Positions 9,959 to 52,955 of a stretch of 64,000 nt of DNA are shown here, piece by piece. How positions within the stretch are numbered: the stretch's first letter is position 1; every line of letters begins with the position of its first letter. Under the pieces are notes generated by a model that saw nothing but the letters and a program-made list of their open reading frames with translations, was not told the origin of the DNA and searched no databases. The translations under genes were made by a program, and so were the position numbers. Source of the stretch: an uncultured Pseudomonadota bacterium (GTDB lineage Bacteria > Desulfobacterota > Binatia > Binatales > Binataceae); assembly GCA_963837035.1 (NCBI GenBank), contig CAWIMH010000015.1, forward strand, positions 669,863-733,862, read 5' to 3'.

Positions 9959-12478
<2,520 letters not shown>

Positions 12479-25801: not shown

Positions 25802-27019
25802 CTAGACCAGAACGCCTGCCTTGCGTAGCTGATCGACCTTATCGCGGGTGTAGCCGAGTAAGGTCTTCAGCACTTCCTCGGTGTCAGCGCCGCGCATAGG
25901 AGCTGGGCTCCTTACGGCGCATGGTGTTCCCGACATTTTCCACGGAATCCCGGCGTGAACGCGAGGGCCGACCTCGGGATGCGGCAGGCGAACGAGATAC
26001 CCACGCTGTTCGAGGTGCGGATCCTCGGCGATGTCCTTGTTAGTCATTGCCGGGAAGGCGGCGACGCCCGCAGCCTGCAGAACTTGTGTGATCGCCCAAC
26101 GATCGCGTGACAAGGTCCACGCGGCGACTATTTGATCAAGTGCAGCCTCGTGCTGTTTTCTTAATGCCGCGGTGGCAAAACGTGGATCTTGAGCAAGTTC
26201 AGGCTGTTGCATTGCCACGCACAGTGCCTTCCATTCCGTCTCGTTAGCCACGGCTATAGATACCCATTGGTCGTCGCCGGCGGTCCGATAGCACTCATTC
26301 GGCGCCATCAGGGAGTCATGATTACCGTGGCGTACGGGTTCGCGCCCGTTGATAGCGTGCTCGAGCAATCCTTCCGGCATCATCACCAGCGCGGTCTCCA
26401 GCTGCGACTGATCGATATACTGACCCTCGCCGGTTAGCGCGCGATGCGTCAGGGCCGCGATCAGCGCGAATGCGCCGAAAACACCGGCGTTGGGGTCTGG
26501 GTAGGAGACTCCGATTTCGCCGGGTTCGCCGCCTTCGTAGCCGGTGCCAAAGAACATTCCTGATGCCGCGGAAGCCGGCGGACCATAGCCAACGAAGCCC
26601 TTGAAGGGTCCCGTTTGTCCGTACCCGGACATCGAGATCATGATGAGGTCGGCCTTGAATTTCCGCAGCTTGTCATAGCCGAATCCGAGCTTGTCCATCA
26701 CACTGGCAGCAAAATTATCGGCGACGATATCGCATTGCTTGACCATTTCGCTCACCAGCTCGACGGCTTCGGGCCGGGCGAGGTTCATCGCAATCGACTT
26801 TTTGCCCTGGTTGTACTGGTTGAAGTATCCGGCGCGGTTTGGCCCAGGGATATCATCGGCGAAGGGGGGAATCACGCGGGTAACGCAGGGCGGGCGCGCG
26901 GTGGTCTCGATGCGAATCACTTCCGCACCGAGATGTGCCAGCTGCATCGTACAAAAGGGACCGGCCCAGGCCCAGGTGAAATCGAGTACGCGGACTCCGG
27001 CAAGCGGTAGATCAGCCAT
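25802..27019 (-). CDS. Family III CoA-transferase (CaiB/BaiF family)
   Basis: Start at internal ATG 27019 (MADLPLAGVRVLDFTWAWAGPFCTMQLAHLGAEVIRIE). CoA_transf_3 signature. Confidence 0.85.
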   Translation of the reverse strand: MADLPLAGVRVLDFTWAWAGPFCTMQLAHLGAEVIRIETTARPPCVTRVIPPFADDIPGPNRAGYFNQYNQGKKSIAMNLARPEAVELVSEMVKQCDIVADNFAASVMDKLGFGYDKLRKFKADLIMISMSGYGQTGPFKGFVGYGPPASAASGMFFGTGYEGGEPGEIGVSYPDPNAGVFGAFALIAALTHRALTGEGQYIDQSQLETALVMMPEGLLEHAINGREPVRHGNHDSLMAPNECYRTAGDDQWVSIAVANETEWKALCVAMQQPELAQDPRFATAALRKQHEAALDQIVAAWTLSRDRWAITQVLQAAGVAAFPAMTNKDIAEDPHLEQRGYLVRLPHPEVGPRVHAGIPWKMSGTPCAVRSPAPMRGADTEEVLKTLLGYTRDKVDQLRKAGVLV

Positions 27020-27038
27020 CGTTCTGCTCTCCTCGAAA

Positions 27039-28256
27039 TCAGATGATCCCTGACCGGTGCAGGGCGGCGTATCGATCCTTGCCCAGCCCCAAGTCGCCGC
27101 AGAAAACCTCTTCACCATGCTCGCCAAGGCGCGGCGCGGCCCGGCGCAGTGCCCACGGCGTTACGCCGTAACGCGAAGGCATGCCGGGGAGCTTCAGCGT
27201 GCCCATGCCGGGCTGTACCAGTTGGACAAAAAAATCACGCTCACGAAAATGCGGCGTCTCGTACAGTTGGCGCATCGTGTTGACCGGGGCGAAGGGAATC
27301 CGCCGATTCTGCGCTTCGATGTACAGATCCTGCACCTTCCAGCCGCTCAGCCATTCGCTCATCAACGCCTTTAGCGCATCCATGTTCTGGCCACGGGCCA
27401 AACGATCCCTGAACAGATCGTCGTTAGCCCACTCGGGATTTCCCATAAGCTCGACGAGGCGCTTCCACTGATCTTCTTCGACTGCGAGGACGAAAATCTT
27501 GCCGTCAAGACAATCGGCGATGAACCACGGTCCGAGCGCACGCGCGCCCAGCCGCGAGGTCACGCGGCCGGCATATGTATAATGCATGAGATTCATTTCG
27601 AGCATTGCCGCGATCACTTCCTGCTCGGAGACGTCGATCGCCTGACCGCGCCCCGTTTTGAGCCGGTGAAAATAAGCGGCGAGCGTGGTGATCGCGGCGT
27701 GCGCTCCACCCTGAAGATCGCATTGGCTGCCGAAGCATTTGAGCGGGGGTAGATCGGGGTAGGGCGAGGCGCCAGGACTGAGGGTGGCCCAACCGGAGGC
27801 GGTGCTCGCGGTCAACTCGTAGCCCCTATAGTTGCCGTAGGGTCCCGTATCGCCGAACATCGAGACCGAGGTCACGATCAATCGCGGGTACCTCGCGCAT
27901 AGGGTGGCGCTGTCGAGCCCGCGTGCCGCGCGATCCGGAGGGGCAACGTTATGGATCAGCACGTCGGCGCGTTCGAGCAAGCCCGCCATCAGTTGCTGAC
28001 CCTCAGGGTGCGTGAGATCCGCAACCACGCCGCGCTTGTTTGTGTTCAGGTAGACGAAAAGCCCGCTTTTCTCGGGGTCCGGACGGTCATCGGGGAAGGG
28101 ACCGCGCCGGCGGGTCAGGTCGCCGCCGGGCGGTTCAACCTTGACCACCTCCGCGCCGAGATCGGCGATGAGCTTGGCGCCGAACGCGGCCGACACACCT
28201 TCACCGCACTCGACAATTTTGATCGCGCTGAACGGCGATCGCGAATTTGCCTCCAC
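27039..28256 (-). CDS. Family III CoA-transferase (CaiB/BaiF family), second paralog
   Basis: 405 aa. IKIVECGEGVSAAFGAKLIADLGAEVVKVEPPGG, and the catalytic Asp region. Confidence 0.85.
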   Translation of the reverse strand: MEANSRSPFSAIKIVECGEGVSAAFGAKLIADLGAEVVKVEPPGGDLTRRRGPFPDDRPDPEKSGLFVYLNTNKRGVVADLTHPEGQQLMAGLLERADVLIHNVAPPDRAARGLDSATLCARYPRLIVTSVSMFGDTGPYGNYRGYELTASTASGWATLSPGASPYPDLPPLKCFGSQCDLQGGAHAAITTLAAYFHRLKTGRGQAIDVSEQEVIAAMLEMNLMHYTYAGRVTSRLGARALGPWFIADCLDGKIFVLAVEEDQWKRLVELMGNPEWANDDLFRDRLARGQNMDALKALMSEWLSGWKVQDLYIEAQNRRIPFAPVNTMRQLYETPHFRERDFFVQLVQPGMGTLKLPGMPSRYGVTPWALRRAAPRLGEHGEEVFCGDLGLGKDRYAALHRSGII

Positions 28257-28331
28257 GGCCTTACCCCCTGAATCGATTTAATCGCACGCGTACGTTTGTT
28301 TCATTCCACTTCGTTCACTAGCAGGAGCGCG

Positions 28332-30008
28332 TCAATTCCGGCCGATCGACTGCATTTTCTCCCGCATTTTCTCGAGTTCGCGCTCGCGCAGGTCGCGACG
28401 ACGGATCTTACCGGTAACGGTCATCGGGAACTCGTCGATAAATTCGAGTTCCCTTGGATATTCATGCGCTGCGAGACGGTTCTTTACATGCTGCTGGATT
28501 TCCTCGATTAGCTGCTTGCTGGGCTGGTGCCCGGGTAGCAATTTGACGAAAGCCTTGATCGATTGCCCGCGCCGCTCGTCTGGCACACCGATGACCGCGC
28601 ACGAGGATACTGCGGGGTGCTCGATTATCTTGGCCTCGACTTCGGCCGGACCGACGCGATAACCCGAGGTTTTGATCACATCGTCGCCGCGACCCTGGAA
28701 ATACACGTAGCCATCGCCGTCCATGTGCCCGATATCGCCTGTGAGGCACCATTGGCCAGTGAACTTCTCGCTCATCGCCGCTGGATTTTTCCAATATTCC
28801 TTCATTACCACCGGGCTGTCCCGGCGAATCGCGATTTCGCCAGTCTCACCGGGTCCGGCCGGTACGCCGTCGCGGATGATCGCGACATCGTGGCCGGGGA
28901 AGGCCTTGCCAAGGGGCTCGAGCATGGGCTTTTCGAGTGCGGAGCAGTTGCCAATGAAATAGTTCGCTTCAGTCTGGCCAAAGGCCTGGTTGAATTGAAC
29001 CTGCAGTTGTTCGTCGACCCAGCGAGCGAGTTCCGGACTGACCGGCTCGGCGCCGCTCACGACGCAGCGCAGGCGTAGATTGCGGTATTTTTCGCGCGGG
29101 TTCTTGATTTCGCGCAGCCCCTTCAGGACGGTGGGTGGATACAGACCGACCGTAGCGCCGTATTTTTCGACCAACCGGAGCATCACGTCGGGATTGAAAC
29201 GCTCCTTGCTGCGATAGGCGAGCACCGGGATGCCATAGGGCCAGATCGCGAGCAGGCCATCGAGCAGACCACCCGCCCAGGCCCAATCGGCCGGGCTGTA
29301 GTAGAGATCTCCAGCGCGCAGGAAGTTGTAGGAGTAGTCGATGCCATTGTGGCCGATCACGTATCGCGCTGCGTGCAGAACCCCCTTGGGATCACCCGTG
29401 GTGCCCGAGGTGTACATCAACAGCAACGGGTCTTCGGCATTGCTTTTGGGCATAGTGAAGTTATCGGAAGCGGCACCGATCAGATCGTCAAAGCCGAGCC
29501 CTCCGCGCTTTCCGCCGGCGATAATCAGGTGCTTGAGATCGGGCAGTTCGCTCCGAATCGGCTCGATTTTCTCAAGGCTCTCCGGTTCGAGCATCAGGAT
29601 GCGGGCAGAGCTATTGGTCAGGCGATAGCGCAAGGCGTCGGTGCCGAAGAGCTTTGAAATCGGTAGCGCGATGGCACCGATGCGATAGCACGCGATATGC
29701 GCAATCGCAGTCTCGGGCCGTTGCGGCAGATGAATCGCGACGACGTCTCCGCGCCTGACCCCGAGCCCGGACAGCGCGTTGGCGAAACGCCGGCTGAGCG
29801 CGCCGATTTGGCCGAACGTATACTGCGCCGCCTGGCCGTCGTCATCTTCATAAAAGAGGGCGGGTTGATCGCGCAGGCTGGTATGGCGGTCGATACAATC
29901 GATCGCGACGTTGTAATCCGTTGGGATGTTCCAGCGGTGGCGGGCGCGCGCGTCGGCCACGCTGGTAGCACCCTTTACGGTCTGTTCACGAAGCCCGATC
30001 AGAGACAT
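28332..30008 (-). CDS. AMP-dependent acyl-CoA synthetase/ligase
   Basis: 558 aa. AMP-binding motif YTSGTTGDPKGV, plus GQTE and the C-terminal GKIRRRDLRE. Confidence 0.85.
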   Translation of the reverse strand: MSLIGLREQTVKGATSVADARARHRWNIPTDYNVAIDCIDRHTSLRDQPALFYEDDDGQAAQYTFGQIGALSRRFANALSGLGVRRGDVVAIHLPQRPETAIAHIACYRIGAIALPISKLFGTDALRYRLTNSSARILMLEPESLEKIEPIRSELPDLKHLIIAGGKRGGLGFDDLIGAASDNFTMPKSNAEDPLLLMYTSGTTGDPKGVLHAARYVIGHNGIDYSYNFLRAGDLYYSPADWAWAGGLLDGLLAIWPYGIPVLAYRSKERFNPDVMLRLVEKYGATVGLYPPTVLKGLREIKNPREKYRNLRLRCVVSGAEPVSPELARWVDEQLQVQFNQAFGQTEANYFIGNCSALEKPMLEPLGKAFPGHDVAIIRDGVPAGPGETGEIAIRRDSPVVMKEYWKNPAAMSEKFTGQWCLTGDIGHMDGDGYVYFQGRGDDVIKTSGYRVGPAEVEAKIIEHPAVSSCAVIGVPDERRGQSIKAFVKLLPGHQPSKQLIEEIQQHVKNRLAAHEYPRELEFIDEFPMTVTGKIRRRDLRERELEKMREKMQSIGRN

Positions 30009-30135
30009 GATGCAGTCCTCCGGTCTCCGGCGCGTTGCCGGCCGACCTGCGTTCTGACCCGTAATTCTTAGCCCAGCGGCCCGGTGATGTTAACCTCGTC
30101 GTAGGTACCAAGCCGGGGCATCCGCGGAGTCGAAT

Positions 30136-30843
30136 ATGGCGAAAATCCTGGTTTTGCAACACCATCCGGCGGAGAACCTTGGAGCGATCGCGGACGCGCT
30201 CGAGGAAGCGGCGCTTGCCTGGCAATATCTGCGCATATTCGACGGTCATGCGATACCGGACCAGATAAAGGGGGCCGGCGGCCTTATTGTTATGGGCGGT
30301 TCAGAGACCGTCTATCAACTCGATCGCTATCCGTACCTCCGGGAGGAGATGCGGCTGATCGAGAGTGCCCTCAAGGAAAACAAGCCGGTCATGGGGGTCT
30401 GTCTCGGCAGTCAACTCCTGGCTGCAACCTTGGGTTCGACCGTCCGGCGCGGTGAGACCAGGGAGATCGGATGGTATCCGGTGCGGCTGACAGCCGCCGC
30501 CACGGAAGACCGCCTCCTGCATGGCCTTCCCCAGGAATTCGTCGCGGCGCACTGGCATAGCGACGTCTTCGACCTGCCTGCCGGCGCGATCGGACTGGCG
30601 TCGTCGGAGAAGACTCCGATCCAGGCTTTTCGGTACGGCGAGAAGGCTTATGGAATGCTGTTCCACGCCGAAATGACGCAGGAGATTCTCACCTCTCTGA
30701 TTGGCGAATTTCGTGAGGGGCTCGGGCGCGTAGGCATCGACAGCGATTCGATTCTCGCGGCAGCCCCGTCCCACCTACCGGCCCTGGGCGAAATCGCGGC
30801 GAAGATTTTCAGCCGTTGGGCCAGCCCCATCCAGGGGACGTAG
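30136..30843 (+). CDS. Class I glutamine amidotransferase-like protein (GATase1)
   Basis: 235 aa. MAKILVLQHH..., nucleophile elbow GVCLGSQLL, and the His region MLFHAE. Confidence 0.7.
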   Translation: MAKILVLQHHPAENLGAIADALEEAALAWQYLRIFDGHAIPDQIKGAGGLIVMGGSETVYQLDRYPYLREEMRLIESALKENKPVMGVCLGSQLLAATLGSTVRRGETREIGWYPVRLTAAATEDRLLHGLPQEFVAAHWHSDVFDLPAGAIGLASSEKTPIQAFRYGEKAYGMLFHAEMTQEILTSLIGEFREGLGRVGIDSDSILAAAPSHLPALGEIAAKIFSRWASPIQGT

Positions 30844-30940
30844 GGAGATTGGCGGATGCCTGCGAATCCACGCTGGCGATCGCAATGTTAACGACGCAAG
30901 ATTTCGCTGCTCTCGAAAAGCACGGTGGCGGGGATGGAGA

Positions 30941-32176
30941 CTAGGCCGTCCGTTCCGCCAGCGGGCGCGACGGAGTAAAGCGGACCGGCATGTGCTTGAT
31001 ACCTGCGACGAAGTTCGAGCGCAGCCGTTCCGGGGTTCCCGCCAACTCGAGGTCGCGCATGCGCCGCATCACCTGATCGACCATCACGCGCATTTCGAGC
31101 CGCGCCAGGTGCGAGCCAATGCAAAAGTGCTCGCCATGTCCGAACGCGAGATGGTCGTTGGGCGTGCGGGCGACGTCGAAGACGTCAGCCGCCTGAAACA
31201 CCGCCTCATCGCGATTGGCCGAGGCATTCCAGACCACGATCTTGTCGCCTTCGCGTATCTTCTCACCGCGCAGTTCGGTGTCCTTGCGGGCGGTGCGCAG
31301 GATGTGTGTCACCGGCGTGGTCCAGCGCAGAAACTCCTCGATCGCCGTCGGCAGGATCGATGGGTCATCACGTAGCCTGGTGCGCTGCACGGGATGATTG
31401 ATCACGGCGAGGATACCGCCCGAGGTCGCGTTGCGGGTGGTTTCCTGACCTCCAATGATCAGCAGGAAGCAATTGAACAGAATCTCGAGGTCGGTGAGGC
31501 GGGTGCCGTCGACGTCGCCGAGTGTGAAGGCGCTGATCAGGTCGCTGCCAGGATTCTTGCGGCGCTCGTCGATCAGTCTGGCGAAATAGCTGAAAAACTC
31601 CGCCTGCGCTGCGCGGCCGGTCTCCATAGCGCTGCGACCCTGGTTGTACTCGGGATCCTGGGTACCGATAGACATATTGCCCAGTGCGTACATCTGGTCG
31701 CGGAACTCAGCCGGAATTCCCAACATCTCGCAAATCGCCGCGGTGGGCAGCTTGCCTGCCACATCAAGCACGAAATCGCATTGGCCGTGTTCGATCACGG
31801 AGTCGATGATCTCATCGCAGATCTTCCTGACTTCCGGCGCGTAGGCGTTGATCGCGCGTGGGGTGAAGCGGCGGCTGACGACCTGGCGGATTTTGTTGTG
31901 GCGCGGAGGGTCGGTCAGGATCATCATCATCCCGGCCCCCGCCTGGTCGGGGATCACGTTGTCGAACTGTAACGAGATGCCGCGCTCCGAGCTGAAAGTT
32001 CCAGGATCATGATAGACGCGAAGCGCATCTTCGTACCGGGTTATCGCCCAGAATCCGCGCTGGTTGCGCTCGTGCCAATACACCGGCGCTTCGCGCCGTA
32101 ATTGTGCGAACGCGAGGTGCGGGTCGCCATGGAGAAAGAGGTCGAGGTCCGTGAGGTCGATCTGCTCGAGCTTCAT
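30941..32176 (-). CDS. Cytochrome P450
   Basis: 411 aa. Heme-binding loop FGHGEHFCIGSHLARLE, the EEFLRW (ExxR) motif, and an I-helix GGQETT. Confidence 0.9.
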   Translation of the reverse strand: MKLEQIDLTDLDLFLHGDPHLAFAQLRREAPVYWHERNQRGFWAITRYEDALRVYHDPGTFSSERGISLQFDNVIPDQAGAGMMMILTDPPRHNKIRQVVSRRFTPRAINAYAPEVRKICDEIIDSVIEHGQCDFVLDVAGKLPTAAICEMLGIPAEFRDQMYALGNMSIGTQDPEYNQGRSAMETGRAAQAEFFSYFARLIDERRKNPGSDLISAFTLGDVDGTRLTDLEILFNCFLLIIGGQETTRNATSGGILAVINHPVQRTRLRDDPSILPTAIEEFLRWTTPVTHILRTARKDTELRGEKIREGDKIVVWNASANRDEAVFQAADVFDVARTPNDHLAFGHGEHFCIGSHLARLEMRVMVDQVMRRMRDLELAGTPERLRSNFVAGIKHMPVRFTPSRPLAERTA

Positions 32177-42630: not shown

Positions 42631-43353
42631 CTAGTGTTGCGGTCCGGGACGCGCGGGCTTGCGTGCATAGAGCGTGGGATCGGGTACGCCCGCCTCGAGG
42701 AATCCGGCGACTCGCTCGGCACATTTGGTGCACTTGCCGCAATGGACGTTGCCATGGGGCCGCGCACATGAAACGGTCAGCTCGAGCCGCATGCCCTCGC
42801 CGCGCCGGACCACGTCGGCCTTGCTCAAGCCCGCGAAAGGCGTGCGGATCCTCAGCTTGATACCGACGCCGAGTTCGACCGCGCGCGCGAAGGCCCGGAA
42901 GAATTCCGGCCGCGCGTCCGGGAAGGGATTGCTCTCGAGCGGCGCCATCGCGATTTCGCCGACCCGGTTGTACGCGCAAAAGATCGCGGCCTTGCACAGG
43001 AGGCTCAAATTACGCCCAAGAATGTAGTTGGAGGACACGGTGGCGTTGTAACCCGGCACGTTACGTCCCGTTATCGACCAATGGCCGGCCGCGAGGTCGC
43101 TCATCGGCAGACGCAGCATCGTCACCGGCTGAACATTGTCGCGTCCCAGCGCACGCGCGAAACGGCGGAGTGTACGGAGTTCGTCCGGCTCCCATCGGAG
43201 GCCGGCTCGGATATAGACCGGGAATACCATGCGGCCAGTCCGTGCGGTTTGACCGAGCATGACCGAGCTGTCGAGCCCACCGCTGGCGAGGACCACGATT
43301 CGTCCGGGGAGCGGCACGATCGAATAATCGTCGGATGGAGGCTGTACGGCCAC
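42631..43353 (-). CDS. queC: 7-cyano-7-deazaguanine synthase
   Basis: 240 aa. PP-loop VVLASGGLDSS, and the zinc motif CARPHGNVHCGKCTKCAER. Confidence 0.85.
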   Translation of the reverse strand: MAVQPPSDDYSIVPLPGRIVVLASGGLDSSVMLGQTARTGRMVFPVYIRAGLRWEPDELRTLRRFARALGRDNVQPVTMLRLPMSDLAAGHWSITGRNVPGYNATVSSNYILGRNLSLLCKAAIFCAYNRVGEIAMAPLESNPFPDARPEFFRAFARAVELGVGIKLRIRTPFAGLSKADVVRRGEGMRLELTVSCARPHGNVHCGKCTKCAERVAGFLEAGVPDPTLYARKPARPGPQH

Positions 43354-43378: not shown

Positions 43379-44119
43379 TCAAATCAGTTGATCAGGCGGC
43401 CGCCGTCGAGCATCAGAGTGGCCCCGGTTGCGAAGTCCGTGCCCTCGCAGAAAAACAATACCGCACGCGCCACGTCCTCGGGCGAACCTAGCGACTTGGT
43501 CAGCGTGGCGAGGCGCAGCCGCTCGACTTCCTCTTCCCCGTAGTCTTCGGGCGGCATCACCGGACCGATCGCGACGCAATTCACCTGGACCTCTGGCGCC
43601 AGCGCCTTGGCTAACGCAGCGCGTGAGCCCGATCAGCCCGGCCTTGGAGACCGTGTAGGGCAGATAGTTGTTATACGGCCGCACACCGGCCCAGTCGCCG
43701 ATATTGACGATTTTGCCGGCGCCCTGGCGGCGCATCGCGACCGCGGCGGCTTTCGCCAGGAAAAACGGCGCCTTCAGGTTCGTGTCGAGGTTGATGTCCC
43801 AGTCGCGTTCCGTCAACTCCTCGAGCGGCTTGCGGTAGAAGACCGACGCTGAATTCACCAGAATATCGATTCGGCCGAAGGTCGCGATTATGTCCGCGAC
43901 CATTCGTTCAATTGCGGCCACGCTTTCCAGGTCCGCGGGAAAAGCCTGTGCGCGCCCGCCGGCGGCGACGATTCGCGCGACACCCTCGTCGGCCTCGGCG
44001 CGCGAATTCCGGTAGTGGATCGCCGCGACGGCCCCGCGTTCAGCCAGTTTAAGCGCGATCGCACGCCCGATGCGTTTGCCCGCGCCTGTAACCAGCGCGA
44101 CTTTGCCCTTGATTTCCAT
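43379..44119 (-). pseudogene. SDR-family oxidoreductase (FolM/pteridine-reductase-like) with an apparent frameshift near 43590-43620
   Basis: N-terminal part in one frame: GKVALVTGAGKRIGRAIA ... NSAS ... YTVSKAGL. The C-terminus is in another frame: NCVAIGPVMPPEDYGEEEVERL...ATGATLMLDGG. Confidence 0.6.
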
Positions 44120-44172: not shown

Positions 44173-45489
44173 TTATAGAGTACTGGCGATCGCCCTGAGC
44201 AAGGCCAGGTTGTCGGAGTGGCCAGTCCTCGAAGCGGTGACATGACCGATGATCGGCCGCCCCAGCAGATATAGGTCACCAATCATATCCAGTATCTTGT
44301 GCCGCGCGAATTCGTCGGGAAATCGCAGTTCGGTGTTCACTACTCGCTCGTCGTCAACCAGGATCAGGTTGTCGAGCCGCCCGCCTTTCGCCAGGCCCAT
44401 CTCGGCGAATTTGTGGAATTCGCGCACAAAGCCGAACGTCCGCGCCGGCGCAATTTCCTTTTCATAGGCTTCCGGTGACGTGAGCTCGAAATGCACGATT
44501 TGCTCACCAATCGGATGCGGATAGTGCAATCGATAGTCGACAATCAGATGATCGGCCGGCGTGATCTGAATATACTCGCCGCCCTGCCCTACCCGAATCT
44601 TTTCTCGCACCTCGATCGGCTCGACGAAGCCGGCTTGACGCTGGATACCGGTCTCGCGCAGATGCCTGCAGAACTCCGCGGCCGATCCATCGAGTGCGGG
44701 CACCTCGTCATCCGTCTTGACCATCAGGTTGGTAATACCGAGCGCGTGCAACGCTGACGTCAGATGCTCAACTGTACGGACCGAATGGCCGCCGGCACTG
44801 AGCGTGGTGTTGTACCCGGTTTCGGTCACGTTCTCCAGGCGCGCCGGAATGGCGGACTGATCCGCCAGGGACGCAAAAACGATCCCGGTGCCGGGGGGTG
44901 CAGGATGCAATATGACTCCGGTCTTGAGCCCCGAGTGAAGTCCCTGTCCTCCGATCACTACCGGATGGCGCACCGTACGCTGCGGACGTGCCGCGGCGCT
45001 TGGACGGACGGCGGTTGCTTGCGTACCTGGCGGAGCATCGTTGGGAACACGGGCGCCGCCGGTTTCGCCGGTCAGCACGCGCTCAATCGAGGCAAGCAGG
45101 CCGTTGACGGAGAACGGCTTCTCGATGAAATCCTCCGCGCCGAGACGGGTCGCGGCGACCGCGTTCTGGATATTCGCGTGCCCCGAAATCATGATTACAT
45201 GGGTTGCCGGCGTTTCGCTTTTAATTCGCCGGAGAAGCTCGATGCCGTCCAATTCGGGCATCCAGACATCGAGCAGAACCACCGTGGGTTTCTCCCGCGC
45301 GATGATTTCCATCACCCCGGGAGCGTTGCCGGTATCGAGCACCCGAAACCCTTCGTCGCTCAGAATTCCGCGCAGGGAGGACCGAATCCGCTCCTCGTCA
45401 TCCACCACCAATACGGTCGCGTTCACTCTTTGGTTCCTATTATCCTGCTTGTCCGAAAGGTTCGATCCGTCCGCGAGGACCACCGCCAC
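44173..45489 (-). CDS. lpxC: Response-regulator receiver domain fused to a full-length UDP-3-O-acyl-N-acetylglucosamine deacetylase (REC-LpxC)
   Basis: Single 438-aa ORF. Residues about 20-140 are a CheY-like REC domain (LVVDDEERIRSSL, VVLLDVWMPELDG, VIMISG, EKPF). Residues about 150-438 are a complete LpxC (RTVEHL, PALDGSAAEF, ARTFGF, FARHKILDMIGDLY, SRTGHSDN). Confidence 0.8.
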   Translation of the reverse strand: MAVVLADGSNLSDKQDNRNQRVNATVLVVDDEERIRSSLRGILSDEGFRVLDTGNAPGVMEIIAREKPTVVLLDVWMPELDGIELLRRIKSETPATHVIMISGHANIQNAVAATRLGAEDFIEKPFSVNGLLASIERVLTGETGGARVPNDAPPGTQATAVRPSAAARPQRTVRHPVVIGGQGLHSGLKTGVILHPAPPGTGIVFASLADQSAIPARLENVTETGYNTTLSAGGHSVRTVEHLTSALHALGITNLMVKTDDEVPALDGSAAEFCRHLRETGIQRQAGFVEPIEVREKIRVGQGGEYIQITPADHLIVDYRLHYPHPIGEQIVHFELTSPEAYEKEIAPARTFGFVREFHKFAEMGLAKGGRLDNLILVDDERVVNTELRFPDEFARHKILDMIGDLYLLGRPIIGHVTASRTGHSDNLALLRAIASTL

Positions 45490-45511
45490 CCCAATCTCAT
45501 CCGTTTGCAGT

Positions 45512-47735
45512 TCAGCCCAAGGCCTTGCCGAATTGCTGCTCTTTTATCGGAAATTCGAGGATGAATCTACTTCCGCGCGGCCGGTTATCCCGAACCCGGA
45601 CGAACCCGCGATGGTCGGTGACGATGGTCGAAACGATGGCCAGGCCCAGTCCCGTTCCGCCATTTTTGGTCGAAAAGTAGGGCTCAAAAATTCGGGTGCG
45701 CAGGCGTGGGTCGATTCCCGGTCCATTGTCGGCAACTTCCAGAGTGATGACACCAGCGCCGTCCGCGCTGGTGCTGACTTCGATCCGCGGGGGCTCGCCG
45801 TCATGGCCTGCGGCGATAGCCGCCACCGCGTTATCCAGCAGGTTGACCAACGCGCGCTTGAGGGCCTCGCGATCAATCGCGATCGAAGGCAGGGCCGGTG
45901 CCAGTGCCAAATCGAAATTGACGCCGGGATGGGCGCCGCGAAAATTGGTGACCGCTTCCTCGGCCAGGGCATTCAGGTCGCCCGGTACGGGATTGATCTG
46001 CGGCATGCGGGCGAAGCCCGAGAACTCGTTGACCAGCCGTTTCAGGTCCTCGACCTCGCCGATTATAGTGTGAGTACATTCATCGAGCAGGCGCGCGTCG
46101 CCGTCCGATCGCGTTGCGAGTTGGCGGCGCAGGCGCTCGGCCGATAGCTGGATCGGTGTCAGCGGGTTCTTGATTTCGTGGGCGATGCGCCGCGCCACTT
46201 CGCGCCAGGCCTCCATCCGCTCGACCTTGGCGATCTGGCTGACGTCTTCGAAAAACAGCACCATCCCGAGGTCGTTGCCGGCCTCATCGCCGAGCGGGGC
46301 TCGCGGTCATCATCAGCTCGGCTTCGGTTCCGCCCGATTCGAGCTTGAGCGAAGACCGGAGCTCCGGCGGCCTCGGTGCTGCGGTGAGGAATTCGTCCAG
46401 CGCGCGCACCAATTCCGGGCCAAAGCATTCGCGGTATGGCCGTCCCAGCACCTCGCGCGCATGCAGTCCGAGCATCCGCTCGGCGCACGGGTTAATCGCG
46501 GTGACGCGGCTTTCCGGGTCGAGCCCGACCACCCCCGCGGAAACGTTGCGCAGCAGCGTTTCGGTGTAGCGGCGGCGGCGCTCGAGTTCGGCGCGAGACG
46601 CGCGCAGGTCGGTCGTCATCTGGTTGAAAGACTCGACCAGTTGCCCGATCTCGTCGTCGCCGACTTCGGGAATCTCGTGGTTGAGGTTCCCGCCCGCAAT
46701 CTCGTGCGTTCCCTGCGCCAACAAGTTGAATCGGTCCCGTGATGCCGCGCGCCAGATAAATTCCAAACCAGCTCGCGAGCAGCACCACCGCCAGACCGAT
46801 CAGCACCAGCGCCAGGATATAGCTGTGCATGATCGGCTGGCGCAGGATGCGCAATTGGAAGATAATCCTCGAACGTACGGGAAATTCCTGCCGCGCGCGA
46901 AGCCAGGCTCTTGGGCAGGTAGTAGTCGATCACGATCGCGCCCTCCACCTAGTCGGAACTCGGACGAGGAATAGATCGGCGCGCTGCCGCGAATGACGTC
47001 CGACTTGCCCAGGCGATCGGTGCGCGTCATCGGCTTGCCCTTCAGCGTCCCCTTGACGATCTCCGAATCCGGCGAGACCCCGATTCCGGTCGGAGTGCGC
47101 GGGCTCAGCACCAGCATCATCAATCTTGCGTTTGCGCGAAAAAATCTCGATCGTGCCCAGGTTGTATTGCTGCTGAGTCTTTCGAGAAATGCGCGCAGCC
47201 GGGCGTGCCGGTCCGGTTCGAGTAGCTGGTCGCGCTGAATCCGCTCGGCCAGAACGCGCGCGAAATGCGCGGCATTGTTGGCTGAGTTGAGATAGTAGAC
47301 CTTGGCGATCTCCAGTGAATCGTCGAGCACGCGCTCGTATTCGGGGTTGAACCAGCTATCGACGTCCGCGCGCAGAAACGTGCCCGCGACATAGAGCATG
47401 AAGGCACTGGGCACCAGCGCGACCGCGATGAATCCGAAAACCAGCCGCGCCTGCAGCTTGGAGCCGATCAGACCGCGGCGGCGCTCGAAAATGGCTTTGG
47501 CCAGGTTGCGCCCGACCAGCAACAGCATCAGGCCGAGCAGCAGGAAGCTCAGGTCGAACAGCAGGATTACGACCAGGTTCGATACCAGCGAAGTGTGCGA
47601 ACTGAGCGGCGGGAGTTCGGTTTGCGCCAGGACGAAAGCGATCAGCGTGGCCGACGCGGCTGCGACCGCGACCAGTTCGCGCCGCCGGCGCTTCAATTCG
47701 GAGCGTCTCAGTTGGAGTTCGACGGTATCTGCCAT
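45512..47735 (-). pseudogene. NtrY-like sensor histidine kinase (TM-HAMP-PAS-HisKA-HATPase) with about three frameshifts. It is the cognate kinase of REC-LpxC.
   Basis: N-terminal frame MADTVELQLRRSELKRRRRELVAV plus TM helices (46800..47735). HAMP/PAS fragment EIPEVGDDEIGQLVESFNQMTTDLRAS (46284..46766). HisKA/HATPase HEIKNPLTPIQLSAERL...NGGTGLGLAIV (45512..46264). Confidence 0.6.
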
Positions 47736-47962
47736 CCGCCTAACGCCTGCAGCCAGGCGAGCATGAGGGACAGCATGATGCTCACTACTGATCGCAGTGG
47801 TGATCGGAAAGTAGAAGTGAAGTTGCCGCGCCGAATGTAAATATCGCCGGGCAGCCGGCCAAGCCGCGCCAGGATCGGGACGGATGACGCCGCCCATACG
47901 ACCAGCCCGACCGCGATCATGACTGCTCCCATCAGGACGATGGTCTTTCCCACGGATGCCAT
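47708..47962 (-). CDS. DUF2905-family small membrane protein
   Basis: MASVGKTIVLMGAVMIAVGLVVW...LGRLPGDIYIRRGNFTSTF. Its 3' end overlaps the annotated kinase start. Confidence 0.45.
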   Translation of the reverse strand: MASVGKTIVLMGAVMIAVGLVVWAASSVPILARLGRLPGDIYIRRGNFTSTFRSPLRSVVSIMLSLMLAWLQALGGWQIPSNSN

Positions 47963-48100
47963 CAGCAAGGCCCAAGGCGCGAGCCATCTACACAATCTAC
48001 CCCGCGCACGGCTCGACGCCGAGGGTGAAATGTTTCACCCATGCTAGCAACGAGCCAGGGGAGCGCGACCACCCATCGCGATCCTCCCCGATGCTACGAC

Positions 48101-50207
48101 TCAAGCCTGCGCGCGATGGGCTTCCTTCGCGTCTTTCGCTTCCTTCACCACCTTTTCGGCGATCGGTGGCGGCACTTCGTCGTAATGCGAGAAGCGTGCT
48201 TCGAATGACCCGCGCCCCGAAGTGATCGAGCGCAAGTCGGGCGCGTATTTGAGAATCTCGGACATCGGCACCAGCGCCTTGATCACCTGCCCGCTGCCCT
48301 TGCGTGTCCATCCCGAGCACACGGCCGCGGCGCGAGTTGAGGTCGCCGATGACGTCGCCCATGCATTCGTCGGGACAGGTGACATCGACCGCCATCACCG
48401 GTTCGAGCAGGATCGGCCTGGCCTTTTCGAAGGCGTTCTTGAAGCCCCATCGAGGCCGCGATCTGAAAGGCCATGTCTGAGGAATCGACGTCATGGTAGC
48501 TGCCGTCGTAAACGGTGACCTTGACGTCGACCATCGGGAACCCGGCCAGGAAGCCCTCGACCAGCGTGTTGCGCACGCCCTTTTCGACCGACGGGATGAA
48601 CTGGCGCGGGATCGAGCCGCCGACGATATCATCGACGAACTCGAAGCCGCCGCCGCGCGGTAGCGGTTCGACCTTGAGCCAGCAATCGCCGTACTGGCCG
48701 CGCCCGCCGGACTGGCGTTTGTATTTGCCCTGGGCTTCGGCGCGGCCCTTGATGGTCTCCTTGTAGGGGACCTTGGGCGCCTGCAACTCGACGTCAACAT
48801 TAAACTTGCGCTTGAGCTTTTCGACCGTGACCTCGATATGCATCTGGCCGGTGCCGGACAGGATAATCTCGTGGGTCTGCGGGTCGCGATGGGTTTCCAG
48901 AGCGGGGTCTTCCTCGACCAGGCGCTGCAGCGCCTGTCGAGGCCTTTTCTTCGTCGCCGCGGGTCTTGGGCCGGATCGCGAACGAGATGACCGGCATAGG
49001 GCTTCTCGGTCGCGGGGAAGATAACCGGCGCCTTCTCGTCACACAGCGTATCGCCGGTGGTGGTGTCCTTGAGCTTCGCGACGGCGACGATCTCGCCGGG
49101 TAGCGCGACCGCGAGCGGCGATTGCTTCTTGCCCTCGAGCCGCAGCAACTGGCCGAAGCGCTCCTTGGACCGATGCGTGGAATTGAGCACGGTGGCGTCG
49201 CTGATGCGCGCGTGCCCGAGACCACGCGGAAGATCGAGAGCTTGCCCGCAAACGGATCGATCACGGTCTTGAAGACGAACGCGCAGAACGGCGCGGCGGG
49301 ATCGGGCGCGCGTTCGACCGACTGCCGTTGTCGGCGCTTGCGCCTTGATCGGCGGGCCGTTCGTTGGGCGCCGGCATCAAGCGTCGCGATCGCGTCGAGC
49401 AGCGGGCCGATACCGATATTTTTCGCGCCGGAGCCGCAAAGCACCGGCGTCAGCTTGCCCGCCAGCACCGCCGCACGCAGCGCCGGCCGCAGATCGCCGT
49501 CGTCCAGAGTTCGCCCTGCTCGAGATATTTTTCGAGCAGCGCGTCGTCGGTCTCCGCGACGGCCTCGCAAAGCTTGGCGCGCGCTTCCTCGGCGCGGGTC
49601 TTCGAGTTCGCCGCTCAGTTCTTCTTCTTTCGCCTTGCCCGAGGCGTCGGCGATGGACGCAGCGCCTTCATCGCGAGCACGTCGATCACGCCGTTGAAAG
49701 CGAGTCTCATCGCCGATCGGCAGGGTCAGCGCGACCGGTTTCGCCGGCCAGCGCTTTTCGAGATCCGCCAGCGCGGCGTCAAAGCTCATCCGCTCGCGAT
49801 CGAGCCGCGAAACAAAGGCGATATGCGGCAGGCCAGCTGTTGATTTGCTCGAAGATCTTTTCCGACTCGACCTTCAGGTCGCCGCCGGCGCTGGCGACAA
49901 AAACCACGCCGTCGACCGCGTCGCATCGTCGCGAGGCTGTCGGCAGAAAAGCGGTGTAGCCGGGGGTGTTGGCGAGAATTACTTCGGTCTTTTTCCAGTT
50001 GAGATGATGAAATGACGAGCTGATCGAAATATGCCGGCTGATCTCCTCGGGCTCCGAATCCATCAGCGCCGTACCGTCGTCAGGACGGCCGAGACGATTG
50101 GTCGCCCCGGCGGTAAAGAGCATCGCCTCGGCCAACTGCGTTTTGCCGGTGCCGCCCTGGCCGACGATCGCGATGGTTCTAAGCCGTCCGATTTCCTCCA
50201 CTGCCAT
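48101..50207 (-). pseudogene. Elongation factor G family translational GTPase with four or more frameshifts
   Basis: G-domain IAIVGQGGTGKTQLAEAMLF...ANTPGYTAF (49779..50207). Domain [22 protein letters not shown]...[18 protein letters not shown] (48283..48843). Domain [41 protein letters not shown] (48101..48385). The 397-aa R/S/A-rich track ORF is a wrong frame. Confidence 0.6.
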
Positions 50208-50311
50208 ATCGGTTCACCTCTGCTGTAACGTTTACATAATCAACATTTGCGCAAGACCTCTCGCGGCCACTACTGGGCGTAGCTGCCGAAGCGGGCTGCG
50301 CTCGCTAACTC

Positions 50312-51111
50312 CTAATCGTAGGCGCCGGCGACACTGACTTCGCCGGCCAGAATCCGCTGTGCGCCTTGGTTCGTCTCCAGCATCAGAGCACCTTCGGCGT
50401 CAACTCCGCGTAACGCAACCGCTGACCCGGGTACTCCGCTGTCACTCACCGTGACGTTCTTCCCGGTCAACGCGAAGTACCTCTCATAGTCCGGGCGCAT
50501 CGCGGCAAAGCCGTGCGCCTCTGCCTCCATATAGCGAGAGTCCAGTCGATTAAAAAGCGTTGCGGCGATCGCGATCCGATCGCAGCGCGGCCTGTCGCGA
50601 TGCGCACCGAGGTCGCCTTAGCGCGCAGCTCTTCCGGGATATCGTCAGCGGCGAGATTGAGGTTGAGCCCGATTCCGAGCAGGACGCAGACCAGCTTCTG
50701 CGCGCTATCCGCGATCGCCTCGGCGATTATCCCGCCCGCCTTGCGCCCCTTGAGCCAGACGTCGTTGGGCCACTTGAGCGCCACCATGCCGGGCGCGACA
50801 GTCGCGAGCGCGTCGGCCGCCGCCACGCCCGCGACGAGGCTCAGGCGGGGCACCTCCGCGAGCGGGATCCGGGGTCGCAGGATAAAGGTCGCGTAGAGGT
50901 TCAAGCCCGGCGGCGAGTGCCATGAGCGGCCCAACCGTCCGCGCCCCGCGGTCTGCTGCTCGGCGATCACGACCGTACCCTGCGCGGCGCCCGCTTCGAC
51001 CATCTCCGCGGCGACCTTCTGGGTCGAGCCGACCTCGTCGAAATAGTGAATCCGCCAACCGATCGTGCCGGGCGCCCCGTGTTCAACCCCTGCGTACGGA
51101 TTACGCGACAT
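50312..51111 (-). pseudogene. birA: Biotin--[acetyl-CoA-carboxylase] ligase with an apparent frameshift near 50540-50580
   Basis: Catalytic part GTVVIAEQQTAGRGRLGRSWHSPPGLNLY...LKWPNDVWL (50467..51111). C-terminal domain MEAEAHGFAAMRPDYERYFALTGKNVTVS in another frame (50312..50530). Confidence 0.6.
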
Positions 51112-51118
51112 CGGTCCC

Positions 51119-51795
51119 TCAGACGGTCATCATGGAATCGAAGCCCTTCCAGAAGAAATGCGCCAGGCAGCGCGCCTCGGCCAGGAATTCCTCTTCGCGG
51201 CCGGTCCCGGTCACGAAATGGTCGATGCTCGCGTGCCCCGCTTCGCCGTGCTCCTTGTCGGCCTCGTAATGGACAGAGAGGAAGCGCAGATGCTCCGGCT
51301 TGAACCCGTAATTCCGCTCCATACCCTTCCATCAGCGTCTTGTAGGCCTCGACTTCGATCTCCTCCATCAGGCCGATTGCGCCGATAAACTGCGGCTTCA
51401 AACGGATGATGCGATACATGCAGGCGTTGAAGGCCGCGACGTCGGAGGCGATCGCGTCGATAAGCTGTTGGCGCGGCAATCCGAGACCGCCTTCCCAGAG
51501 CTCGAACAGCAGTTCGGTATGACCGGCGGAATGGCTGTAAAGGCCGAGCGCCTCCTCGGCAAACCCCTTGGCGGCGCCCTGTCCGGCTTTCTCGTCGAGT
51601 TCGTGCAACCGCAGGTAGACCGGCCGAAAGCGGCGCGGAGTCGCGCACGGTCATCTCGTAATGCTGGATCGGATAACCCTTGAGCTGCTCGCGCGTAGCC
51701 TTGCCGCTCGCAATCAGGTCAACATAGGGATGCTGGTTCAGGCGGTATTCGGAAACGATTTGGTTAATCTGCTTATGGAACGTCGCTGTATCCAT
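51119..51795 (-). pseudogene. PqqC/TenA/CADD-like heme-oxygenase-fold (iron-containing redox enzyme family) protein with two frameshifts
   Basis: MDTATFHKQINQIVSEYRLNQHPYVDLIASGKATREQLKGYPIQHYEMT | ...FAEEALGLYSHSAGHTELLFELWEGG...IGLMEEIEVEAYKTLMEGYGAE | MERNYGFKPEHLRFLSVHYEADKEHGEAGHASIDHFV. Confidence 0.5.
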
Positions 51796-51812
51796 CGATT
51801 CACCTCGCTCGA

Positions 51813-52009
51813 AATTGCTGAACTTAAGATTTTTGACGCGGCTCACACAGTCTTAACTTTGGCCGCGCCTTGCGGACTCAGCTGTCCCCTGTGCTCGCTT
51901 CGCCTTCGGCTCCATTGACTTAAGATTTTTGACGCGGCTCGCACAGTTTTAACTTTGGCCGCGCCCCGCGTGATCAACCGCCCCTGCGCATCGCTCCGCC
52001 TTCGGCCCA

Positions 52010-52013
<4 letters not shown>
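51813..52013. repeat. Diverged tandem duplication, about 105 bp x 2, between the nadC stop and the PqqC-like start
   Basis: Unit 1 is 51813-51918 and unit 2 is 51919-52013. The first 47 bp are near-identical (CTTAAGATTTTTGACGCGGCTCRCACAGTYTTAACTTTGGCCGCGCC). The rest is similar with indels, including a GCCTTCGGC tetraloop-like hairpin. Confidence 0.8.

Positions 52014-52955
<942 letters not shown>

Follow-up and report, generated by a model that had tools for sequence, protein, structure and literature searches.

LpxC catalyses the committed step of lipopolysaccharide (LPS) synthesis, is a point at which the pathway is controlled and is a major antibiotic target. Every control of LpxC known to us acts in trans, through FtsH/LapB/YejM, MurA or Lon, or through transcription via NtrYX and ChvGI. 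Two-component systems have been described that act on lpxC at the level of transcription. NtrYX represses lpxC transcription in Rhodobacter sphaeroides and Caulobacter crescentus (PMC7240162, PMC12444477), its loss in R. sphaeroides raises lpxC mRNA approximately 9-fold (PMC7240162), and a 2025 review counts NtrYX among the LpxC regulators (PMC12444477). In Desulfovibrio vulgaris, lpxC is the sole mapped target of the NtrC-type regulator DVU2934, and in S. fumaroxidans lpxC adjoins an operon orthologous to the D. vulgaris one (PMC3333781). The subject of this study is a gene within a 64,000-nucleotide stretch of DNA (the window; assembly GCA_963837035.1, contig CAWIMH010000015.1, positions 669,863 to 733,862) from an uncultured soil bacterium of the Binataceae. 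It encodes a response regulator whose output domain is LpxC itself, with a receiver domain (REC) joined in one reading frame to the enzyme and an NtrY-like sensor histidine kinase encoded upstream. This architecture is real, the residues for phospho-acceptance and zinc-dependent deacetylation are kept, and adjacency to the kinase is conserved. To judge from sequence, we consider it reasonably likely that the gene belongs to a conserved two-component module, made up of the small membrane protein DUF2905, an NtrY-like kinase and a regulator with an LpxC output, in which LpxC would be under phospho-control.

The original prediction of a single uninterrupted 438-residue frame carrying a receiver and a full-length LpxC was confirmed by the open reading frame (ORF) listing of the 64-kb window, by Pfam and by the NCBIfam lpxC equivalog model (Table 1). 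Pfam Response_reg (PF00072) matches residues 26–135 (E 1.3e-29, 103 bits against a cut-off of 30.2) and Pfam LpxC (PF03331) matches residues 170–435 over profile positions 1–267 of 268 (E 9e-87, 291 bits against a cut-off of 27), and the equivalog TIGR00325 is passed at 257 bits against a cut-off of 187. By every sequence test available, the protein is a genuine LpxC as well as a genuine receiver. Its real start is probably the GTG at 45426 (V22, 'VNATV'), which would shorten it to approximately 417 residues. This assignment draws on an alignment of the window protein with 27 homologues (alignment A1, 28 sequences) and on the local sequence, where an AGGA lies approximately 10 nt upstream of that GTG.

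The LpxC motifs RTVEHL (E241-H242), HKILDMIGD (H397-K398-D401-D405) and GHSDN (H424) are found as claimed. The His-His-Asp zinc ligands are H242, H397 and D401, and E241, H424, T351 and K398 are catalytic. Fusion residues E241/H242, T351, H397/K398/D401/D405 and H424 map to E77/H78, T190, H237/K238/D241/D245 and H264 of Pseudomonas aeruginosa LpxC, and these motifs are consistent with an HMMER alignment of the fusion to PDB chains. Only three residues follow the LpxC domain. P. aeruginosa LpxC runs approximately 29 residues further, and the fusion has no C-terminal tail of the kind that carries the FtsH degron in E. coli LpxC (review PMC12444477). In a Foldseek comparison, an AlphaFold2 model of the fusion matches solved LpxC chains at E ~1e-25 and a template modelling (TM) score of 0.67–0.77, normalised to target.

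In the receiver, D30, D31, D74, S102, F121 and K124 are invariant across alignment A1, which consists of Binataceae proteins. The acidic pair (D30/D31), the phospho-acceptor D74 and K124 stand as originally described, whereas the hydroxyl residue in VIMISG is Ser (S102) and not Thr. Between the domains, the linker varies at columns 140–170 of alignment A1, aligns free of stop codons in 28/28 sequences and has a predicted local distance difference test (pLDDT) score below 50 over residues 144–159. The closest solved receivers are those of Brucella NtrX (4d6x, 5m7n) and the best curated match is NCBIfam NtrX. That model (NF051870) is matched by the receiver only, at 115.6 bits against a cut-off of 600 over profile positions 3–120 of 452, and a Pfam scan of the 438-residue protein detected neither an AAA+ nor a helix-turn-helix (HTH) domain. 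Because both domains are absent and the score is far under the cut-off, the protein is NtrX-derived but not NtrX. The NCBIfam model for bifunctional LpxC-FabZ (NF009667) is below its cut-off on the fusion, and NCBIfam has no dedicated model for the REC-LpxC architecture.

The fusion is not confined to this contig. The best 120 database matches all carry PF00072 and PF03331 at 71–97% identity and approximately 420 residues; they originate from JGI, ENA, NCBI and Logan, and many bear the name Candidatus Binataceae. Proteins with this fused frame make up more than 120 clusters at 90% identity, drawn from independent samples and sequencing sources, and the frame recurs in 21 loci of a genome-contig collection holding one genome per species, where loci L001–L020 confirm the architecture. 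Submitters' labels for the fused loci include Binataceae/Binatia, Syntrophobacter(aceae), Thermodesulfobacteriota, Acidiferrales and Bdellovibrionota. One REC-LpxC contig (L013, CAZGUU010000404.1) is titled 'uncultured Enterobacteriaceae bacterium' and is most likely a mislabelled or mis-binned metagenome-assembled genome. An exhaustive wider search of cluster representatives at 50% identity added numerous REC-LpxC clusters, with identities falling as low as 33%. Across 59 diverse receiver-bearing fusions, D74 is kept in 56/59 and K124 in 58/59, while the LpxC residues E241, H242, H397, K398, D401, D405 and H424 are present in 59/59 and T351 in 58/59. Together with D74 in 28/28 Binataceae proteins, these counts bear out the presence of the phospho-acceptor Asp. 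The databases name such proteins plainly 'UDP-3-O-acyl-N-acetylglucosamine deacetylase'.

Among the relatives with Nitrospina/Nitrospinota names are longer forms. Proteins of approximately 700–736 residues comprise REC, Sigma54_activat, AAA_lid and LpxC (Pfam), with a Fis-type HTH preceding LpxC, and a 505-residue relative has the order REC-HTH_8-LpxC. In the Nitrospinota REC-AAA+-HTH-LpxC proteins (P0122–P0140, P0132; 733 residues), the AAA+ domain keeps Walker A and lacks GAFTGA and Walker B. These long forms amount to a complete NtrX to which LpxC has been added, and may be able both to bind DNA and to act as enzymes.

The genome-contig collection returned 80 loci, which were domain-mapped. 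Of the 21 fused loci, 14 have an NtrY-like kinase immediately upstream, five have none and two have too little flank to tell (14/19). With the receiver nearest to that of NtrX, this synteny upholds the proposal that the fusion sits where NtrX would be. Intact kinase orthologues of 739–751 residues with the same domains occur in L001–L003. In the window the kinase is interrupted, but NtrY_N, HAMP, PAS, HisKA and HATPase_c are all detectable by Pfam in its fragments, NtrY_N weakly (30 bits against a cut-off of 23), and the fragments retain the H box HEIKNPL and the G boxes. An NtrY-like kinase upstream on the same strand thus stands as predicted, whereas an intact frame in the window does not, and the predicted 22-nt gap to the fusion requires translation to begin at the first GTG (45489); measured from GTG 45426 the gap is 85 nt, the likelier distance.

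The interruptions were examined against L001, a JGI contig 93% identical to the window. There are 30 indels in 6.85 kb, 25 of them 1-nt insertions in the window, mostly outside homopolymers. They form a dense stretch at 46299–52850, with one more at 43617, and frameshift nadC, birA, an elongation factor G (EF-G) paralogue, DUF2905, the kinase and the downstream short-chain dehydrogenase/reductase (SDR) gene. No indel relative to L001 falls between 43617 and 45492, and the fusion gene is untouched. When the indels are removed, the affected genes show 89–98% protein identity to L001 and far more synonymous than non-synonymous differences; the only stop codon left is 7 nt away from an indel and can be put down to ambiguity in the alignment. 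Because of the synonymous excess and the lack of independent stops, the 1-nt indels look technical, as local assembly or sequencing error, rather than a product of gene decay. The kinase is broken at 47177, 47127, 46958, 46860, 46722 and 46299; with these removed it has 96.6% protein identity to L001, its codon differences are synonymous in 84 cases and non-synonymous in 24, and it contains no independent stop. On the synonymous excess and the proximity of the lone stop to an indel, a kinase pseudogene was rejected as the principal interpretation.

DUF2905 completes the conserved core, DUF2905-kinase-fusion, across fused loci. It is matched by Pfam in L001–L003 (73–74 residues; L001 1782–2003, L003 7442–7666), lies directly upstream of the kinase in L001–L004, L006, L008, L009, L012, L017 and L030, and could serve the kinase as an accessory protein. 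Most of the fused loci have DUF2905 in this place. In L022, DUF2905 is found upstream of a stand-alone lpxC. The gene order in L001–L003 is EF-G paralogue, DUF2905, kinase, REC-LpxC and SDR, with which the window agrees. The SDR and the EF-G paralogue were considered as parts of the system and rejected, their conservation being confined to the Binataceae.

The unfused relatives place lpxC beside a similar kinase. In 23 unfused loci from approximately 22–23 species, the order is stand-alone lpxC, NtrY-like kinase and REC-AAA+ regulator, and a further 19 kinase-regulator pairs among the mapped loci have no lpxC. Record titles for the unfused loci include Desulfobacterales, Geobacteraceae, Desulfuromonas, Rokubacteria and others, and the lpxC adjoining the two-component system is of ordinary length. 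A sigma-54-type -24/-12 element, defined as a match to at least 9 of 11 consensus positions, lies 49–134 nt upstream of lpxC in 6/22 unfused loci, compared with 2.5% of control segments (p = 1.3e-5). Sites scoring at least 8 co-occur with GAFTGA in the adjacent regulator (9/10 vs 0/11, p = 3.4e-5).

In a tree of 163 LpxC domains, built by neighbour-joining only with 100 bootstrap replicates, a single split sets 64/64 fused domains, along with nine apparently unfused sequences, apart from the rest. At least 60 of the 64 group together in 100/100 replicates, to the exclusion of every stand-alone lpxC adjoining a two-component system. The fused LpxC domains, those of the Nitrospinota forms among them, belong to a single well-supported clade. 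Three of the unfused members were checked: P0154 and P0157 lie on contigs of approximately 1–4 kb and P0168 is a broken fusion. The other six are P0187, P0219, P0245, P0252, P0257 and P0266. P0168 (292 residues, L084 4818–6879) was considered as a case of gene fission and rejected, its kinase being fragmented and its receiver lost to frameshifts; L084 also illustrates that gene calls in error-prone assemblies can hide the REC-LpxC architecture. Within the clade, REC-AAA-LpxC proteins are intermingled with shorter forms, a pattern suggesting that AAA+ and HTH were lost repeatedly. The nearest named stand-alone LpxC clusters come from Manganitrophaceae and NC10, and none from Binatia.

These observations are compatible with an origin in three steps. 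An ancestral lpxC would have lain next to an NtrY/NtrX-like pair controlling its transcription. Next, the regulator would have gained LpxC at its C-terminus, a stage preserved in the Nitrospinota REC-AAA+-HTH-LpxC proteins, and subsequent loss of AAA+ and HTH would have given the Binataceae REC-LpxC. Given a fused clade that contains the Nitrospinota forms, and lpxC-kinase-regulator loci with sigma-54 promoters, direct enzyme control probably replaced two-component transcriptional control of lpxC.

In the mechanism we propose, the NtrY-like kinase would phosphorylate D74 of the receiver, the phosphorylation state of which would then set LpxC activity. In receiver-enzyme regulators, phosphorylation relieves inhibition or drives dimerisation, and both modes can be envisaged here. 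CheB-type regulation is the most likely working analogy: the tethered receiver would dock on the catalytic domain and be freed on phosphorylation. The disordered, variable linker resembles that of tethered-domain regulators. Alternatively, phosphorylation may drive dimerisation via the alpha4-beta5-alpha5 face. In either case, lipid A flux would follow the signal sensed by the kinase with transcription bypassed, and the control may be either activating or inhibitory.

Several points weigh against this account. No NtrY-like kinase lies alongside the fused gene in L014, L015, L018, L019 and L052, nor in L085. The kinase in the window is split over several frames (46800–47735, 46284–46766, 45512–46264 and others), although the cause looks technical. 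The AlphaFold2 model of the fusion is of moderate quality (pLDDT 73.7, predicted TM score 0.73). The 80 loci were ranked by similarity to an LpxC-containing query, which biases the frequency of lpxC linkage upward, and the score threshold of 8 behind the GAFTGA co-occurrence was picked after the data had been seen. Two of the loci lacking the adjacent kinase have distinctive surroundings. In L014 an unrelated kinase lies on the opposite strand beside the orphan REC-LpxC, and in L085 the orphan gene lies on a 1.8-Mb contig between genes for orotidine monophosphate (OMP) decarboxylase and a RecN-like protein.

The foremost alternative is that the receiver governs how much LpxC there is, or where it is located, and not its catalysis, as a phospho-degron, an RssB/CpdR-like handle for a protease adaptor, or a membrane or partner docking site, replacing the FtsH/LapB route. 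In the systems studied most closely, LpxC is controlled by proteolysis (review PMC12444477). In the fusion the C-terminal tail is absent, and therefore proteolysis would need another handle; the long, disordered linker also accords with this explanation. However, the compared loci have no conserved protease or adaptor gene nearby, and the receiver resembles RssB or CpdR only as any REC would, and less closely than it resembles NtrX. Most described receiver-enzyme fusions, moreover, act on catalysis. We regard this alternative as unlikely.

Less probable again is an accessory paralogue, with a stand-alone housekeeping lpxC elsewhere in the genome and the fusion providing conditional capacity or acting on another substrate. 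The search for a second copy covered the 64-kb window, in which tblastn found neither a second lpxC nor a second receiver, and this leaves some room for such a gene. An accessory role fits poorly with an LpxC domain that scores above the lpxC equivalog cut-off and with catalytic residues that are invariant or nearly so across the 59 fusions. Among the 50%-identity cluster representatives no stand-alone LpxC exceeds approximately 50% identity to the fused domain. The three unfused clade members that were checked reduce to short contigs or a broken fusion, the named nearest stand-alone enzymes come from outside the Binatia, and the unfused relatives place an lpxC of ordinary length beside the two-component system.

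The fused loci that have no adjacent kinase would suit a receiver acting as a structural appendage independent of phosphorylation, or as a phosphate sink, with no effect on LpxC. We consider this very improbable, as the acidic pocket, the Ser/Thr, the aromatic switch residue and the Lys are kept across fusions down to 33% identity and kinase adjacency is conserved in most fused loci. Finally, an assembly or indel artefact joining two separate genes, a natural concern where approximately 30 indels in 6.85 kb frameshift many of the neighbouring genes, is ruled out for practical purposes by a gene free of indels against L001, more than 120 independent clusters and 21 loci with the same fusion, and a linker open in all 28 sequences, and the junction is genuine.

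Phospho-control of LpxC through its fused receiver, the reading we prefer, would extend a known class. Response regulators with enzymatic output are of a known kind; an LpxC output and this mode of control would be new. As the original prediction supposed, no description of a REC-LpxC fusion was found in the 2025 review of LpxC regulation or in the full-text literature searched, the coverage of which excludes most subscription journals. The prediction had also allowed that the architecture might prove common and already characterised. It is common, but no characterisation was found in the same sources, and REC-LpxC is widespread in uncultured lineages and apparently uncharacterised. A receiver in cis with a dedicated kinase would, if true, provide a direct and fast link from signal to enzyme for outer-membrane biogenesis. 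Rather more tentatively, and with confidence a little short of evenly balanced, this may be a fourth and mechanistically new control of LpxC, after proteolysis, MurA activation and transcription, with the fusion serving as a 'Rosetta stone' indicating that setting LPS output was the original, core task of NtrYX-like systems. Such a core role, if true, would explain the envelope phenotypes of alphaproteobacterial ntrYX mutants. The comparative series links NtrYX-type systems to lpxC across several phyla. It runs from lpxC beside a two-component system with a sigma-54 promoter, through REC-AAA-HTH-LpxC and REC-HTH-LpxC, to REC-LpxC, and offers a concrete case of transcriptional control giving way to post-translational control by gene fusion.

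Table 1. The REC-LpxC gene, its domains and its partner genes in the window, with the loci carrying the unfused gene order
Feature	Position or loci	Strand	Details
REC-LpxC fusion gene	44173..45489	minus	Maximal ORF of 438 residues; Pfam, NCBIfam and homologues
Receiver (REC), NtrX type	45085..45414	minus	Residues 26-135; D30, D31, D74 (phospho-acceptor), S102, F121, K124
Interdomain linker	44986..45072	minus	Residues ~140-168; sequence and length vary, predicted disordered
LpxC domain	44185..44982	minus	Residues 170-435; E241, H242, T351, H397, K398, D401, D405, H424
NtrY-like sensor histidine kinase	45512..47735	minus	NtrY_N membrane region, HAMP, PAS, HisKA, HATPase_c; six 1-nt indels
DUF2905 small membrane protein	47747..47962	minus	tblastn match; 3' end frameshifted in the window
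lpxC-kinase-regulator loci	L021-L032, L034, L041, L046, L047, L050, L055, L057, L061, L062, L070, L071, L073		

A scan of 43.3–48.3 kb for promoters and terminators gave nothing above shuffled expectation. The EF-G paralogue (window 47997–50207, minus strand) is approximately 700 residues long in relatives and spread over at least five frames in the window. The SDR immediately downstream of the fusion is pteridine-reductase-like and has queC beside it (42631–43353 and 43379–44119, both on the minus strand), and this SDR-queC pairing is conserved in the Binataceae. The queuosine genes queA and tgt occur in tandem elsewhere in the window (9959–12123, plus strand). At 25802–32176 on the minus strand are two tandem family III CoA-transferases and an AMP-binding acyl-CoA synthetase, with a cytochrome P450 nearby; this cluster may be a catabolic island.

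Of the described systems, NtrY/NtrX of Brucella, R. sphaeroides and C. crescentus is similar in kinase architecture, in having the receivers nearest to that of the fusion, and in its functional link to lpxC and the envelope, NtrYX being a repressor of lpxC (PMC7240162, PMC12444477). It differs in output: NtrX is a REC-AAA+-HTH protein acting on DNA and controls dozens of genes, whereas the output of the fusion is the LpxC enzyme, the Binataceae form has neither AAA+ nor HTH, and REC-LpxC can act on one reaction only. DVU2931/DVU2934 of D. vulgaris is likewise a two-component system dedicated to lpxC (PMC3333781), and the adjacency of lpxC to the orthologous operon in S. fumaroxidans agrees with the lpxC-kinase-regulator order found here. 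That likeness is one of target and gene order; control in D. vulgaris is transcriptional and lpxC is a separate gene. The bifunctional LpxC-FabZ protein (NF009667) is another natural LpxC fusion, but its partner is a C-terminal metabolic enzyme and not an N-terminal signalling domain. In CheB, PleD, WspR and RpfG, as in REC-LpxC, a flexible linker connects a receiver with a catalytic domain, although their catalytic domains are unrelated to LpxC. Finally, FtsH/LapB/YejM proteolysis in E. coli and MurA activation in P. aeruginosa act in trans, via a C-terminal degron or a partner enzyme, whereas in REC-LpxC, where the C-terminal tail is absent, control would be exerted in cis through the fused phospho-receiver.

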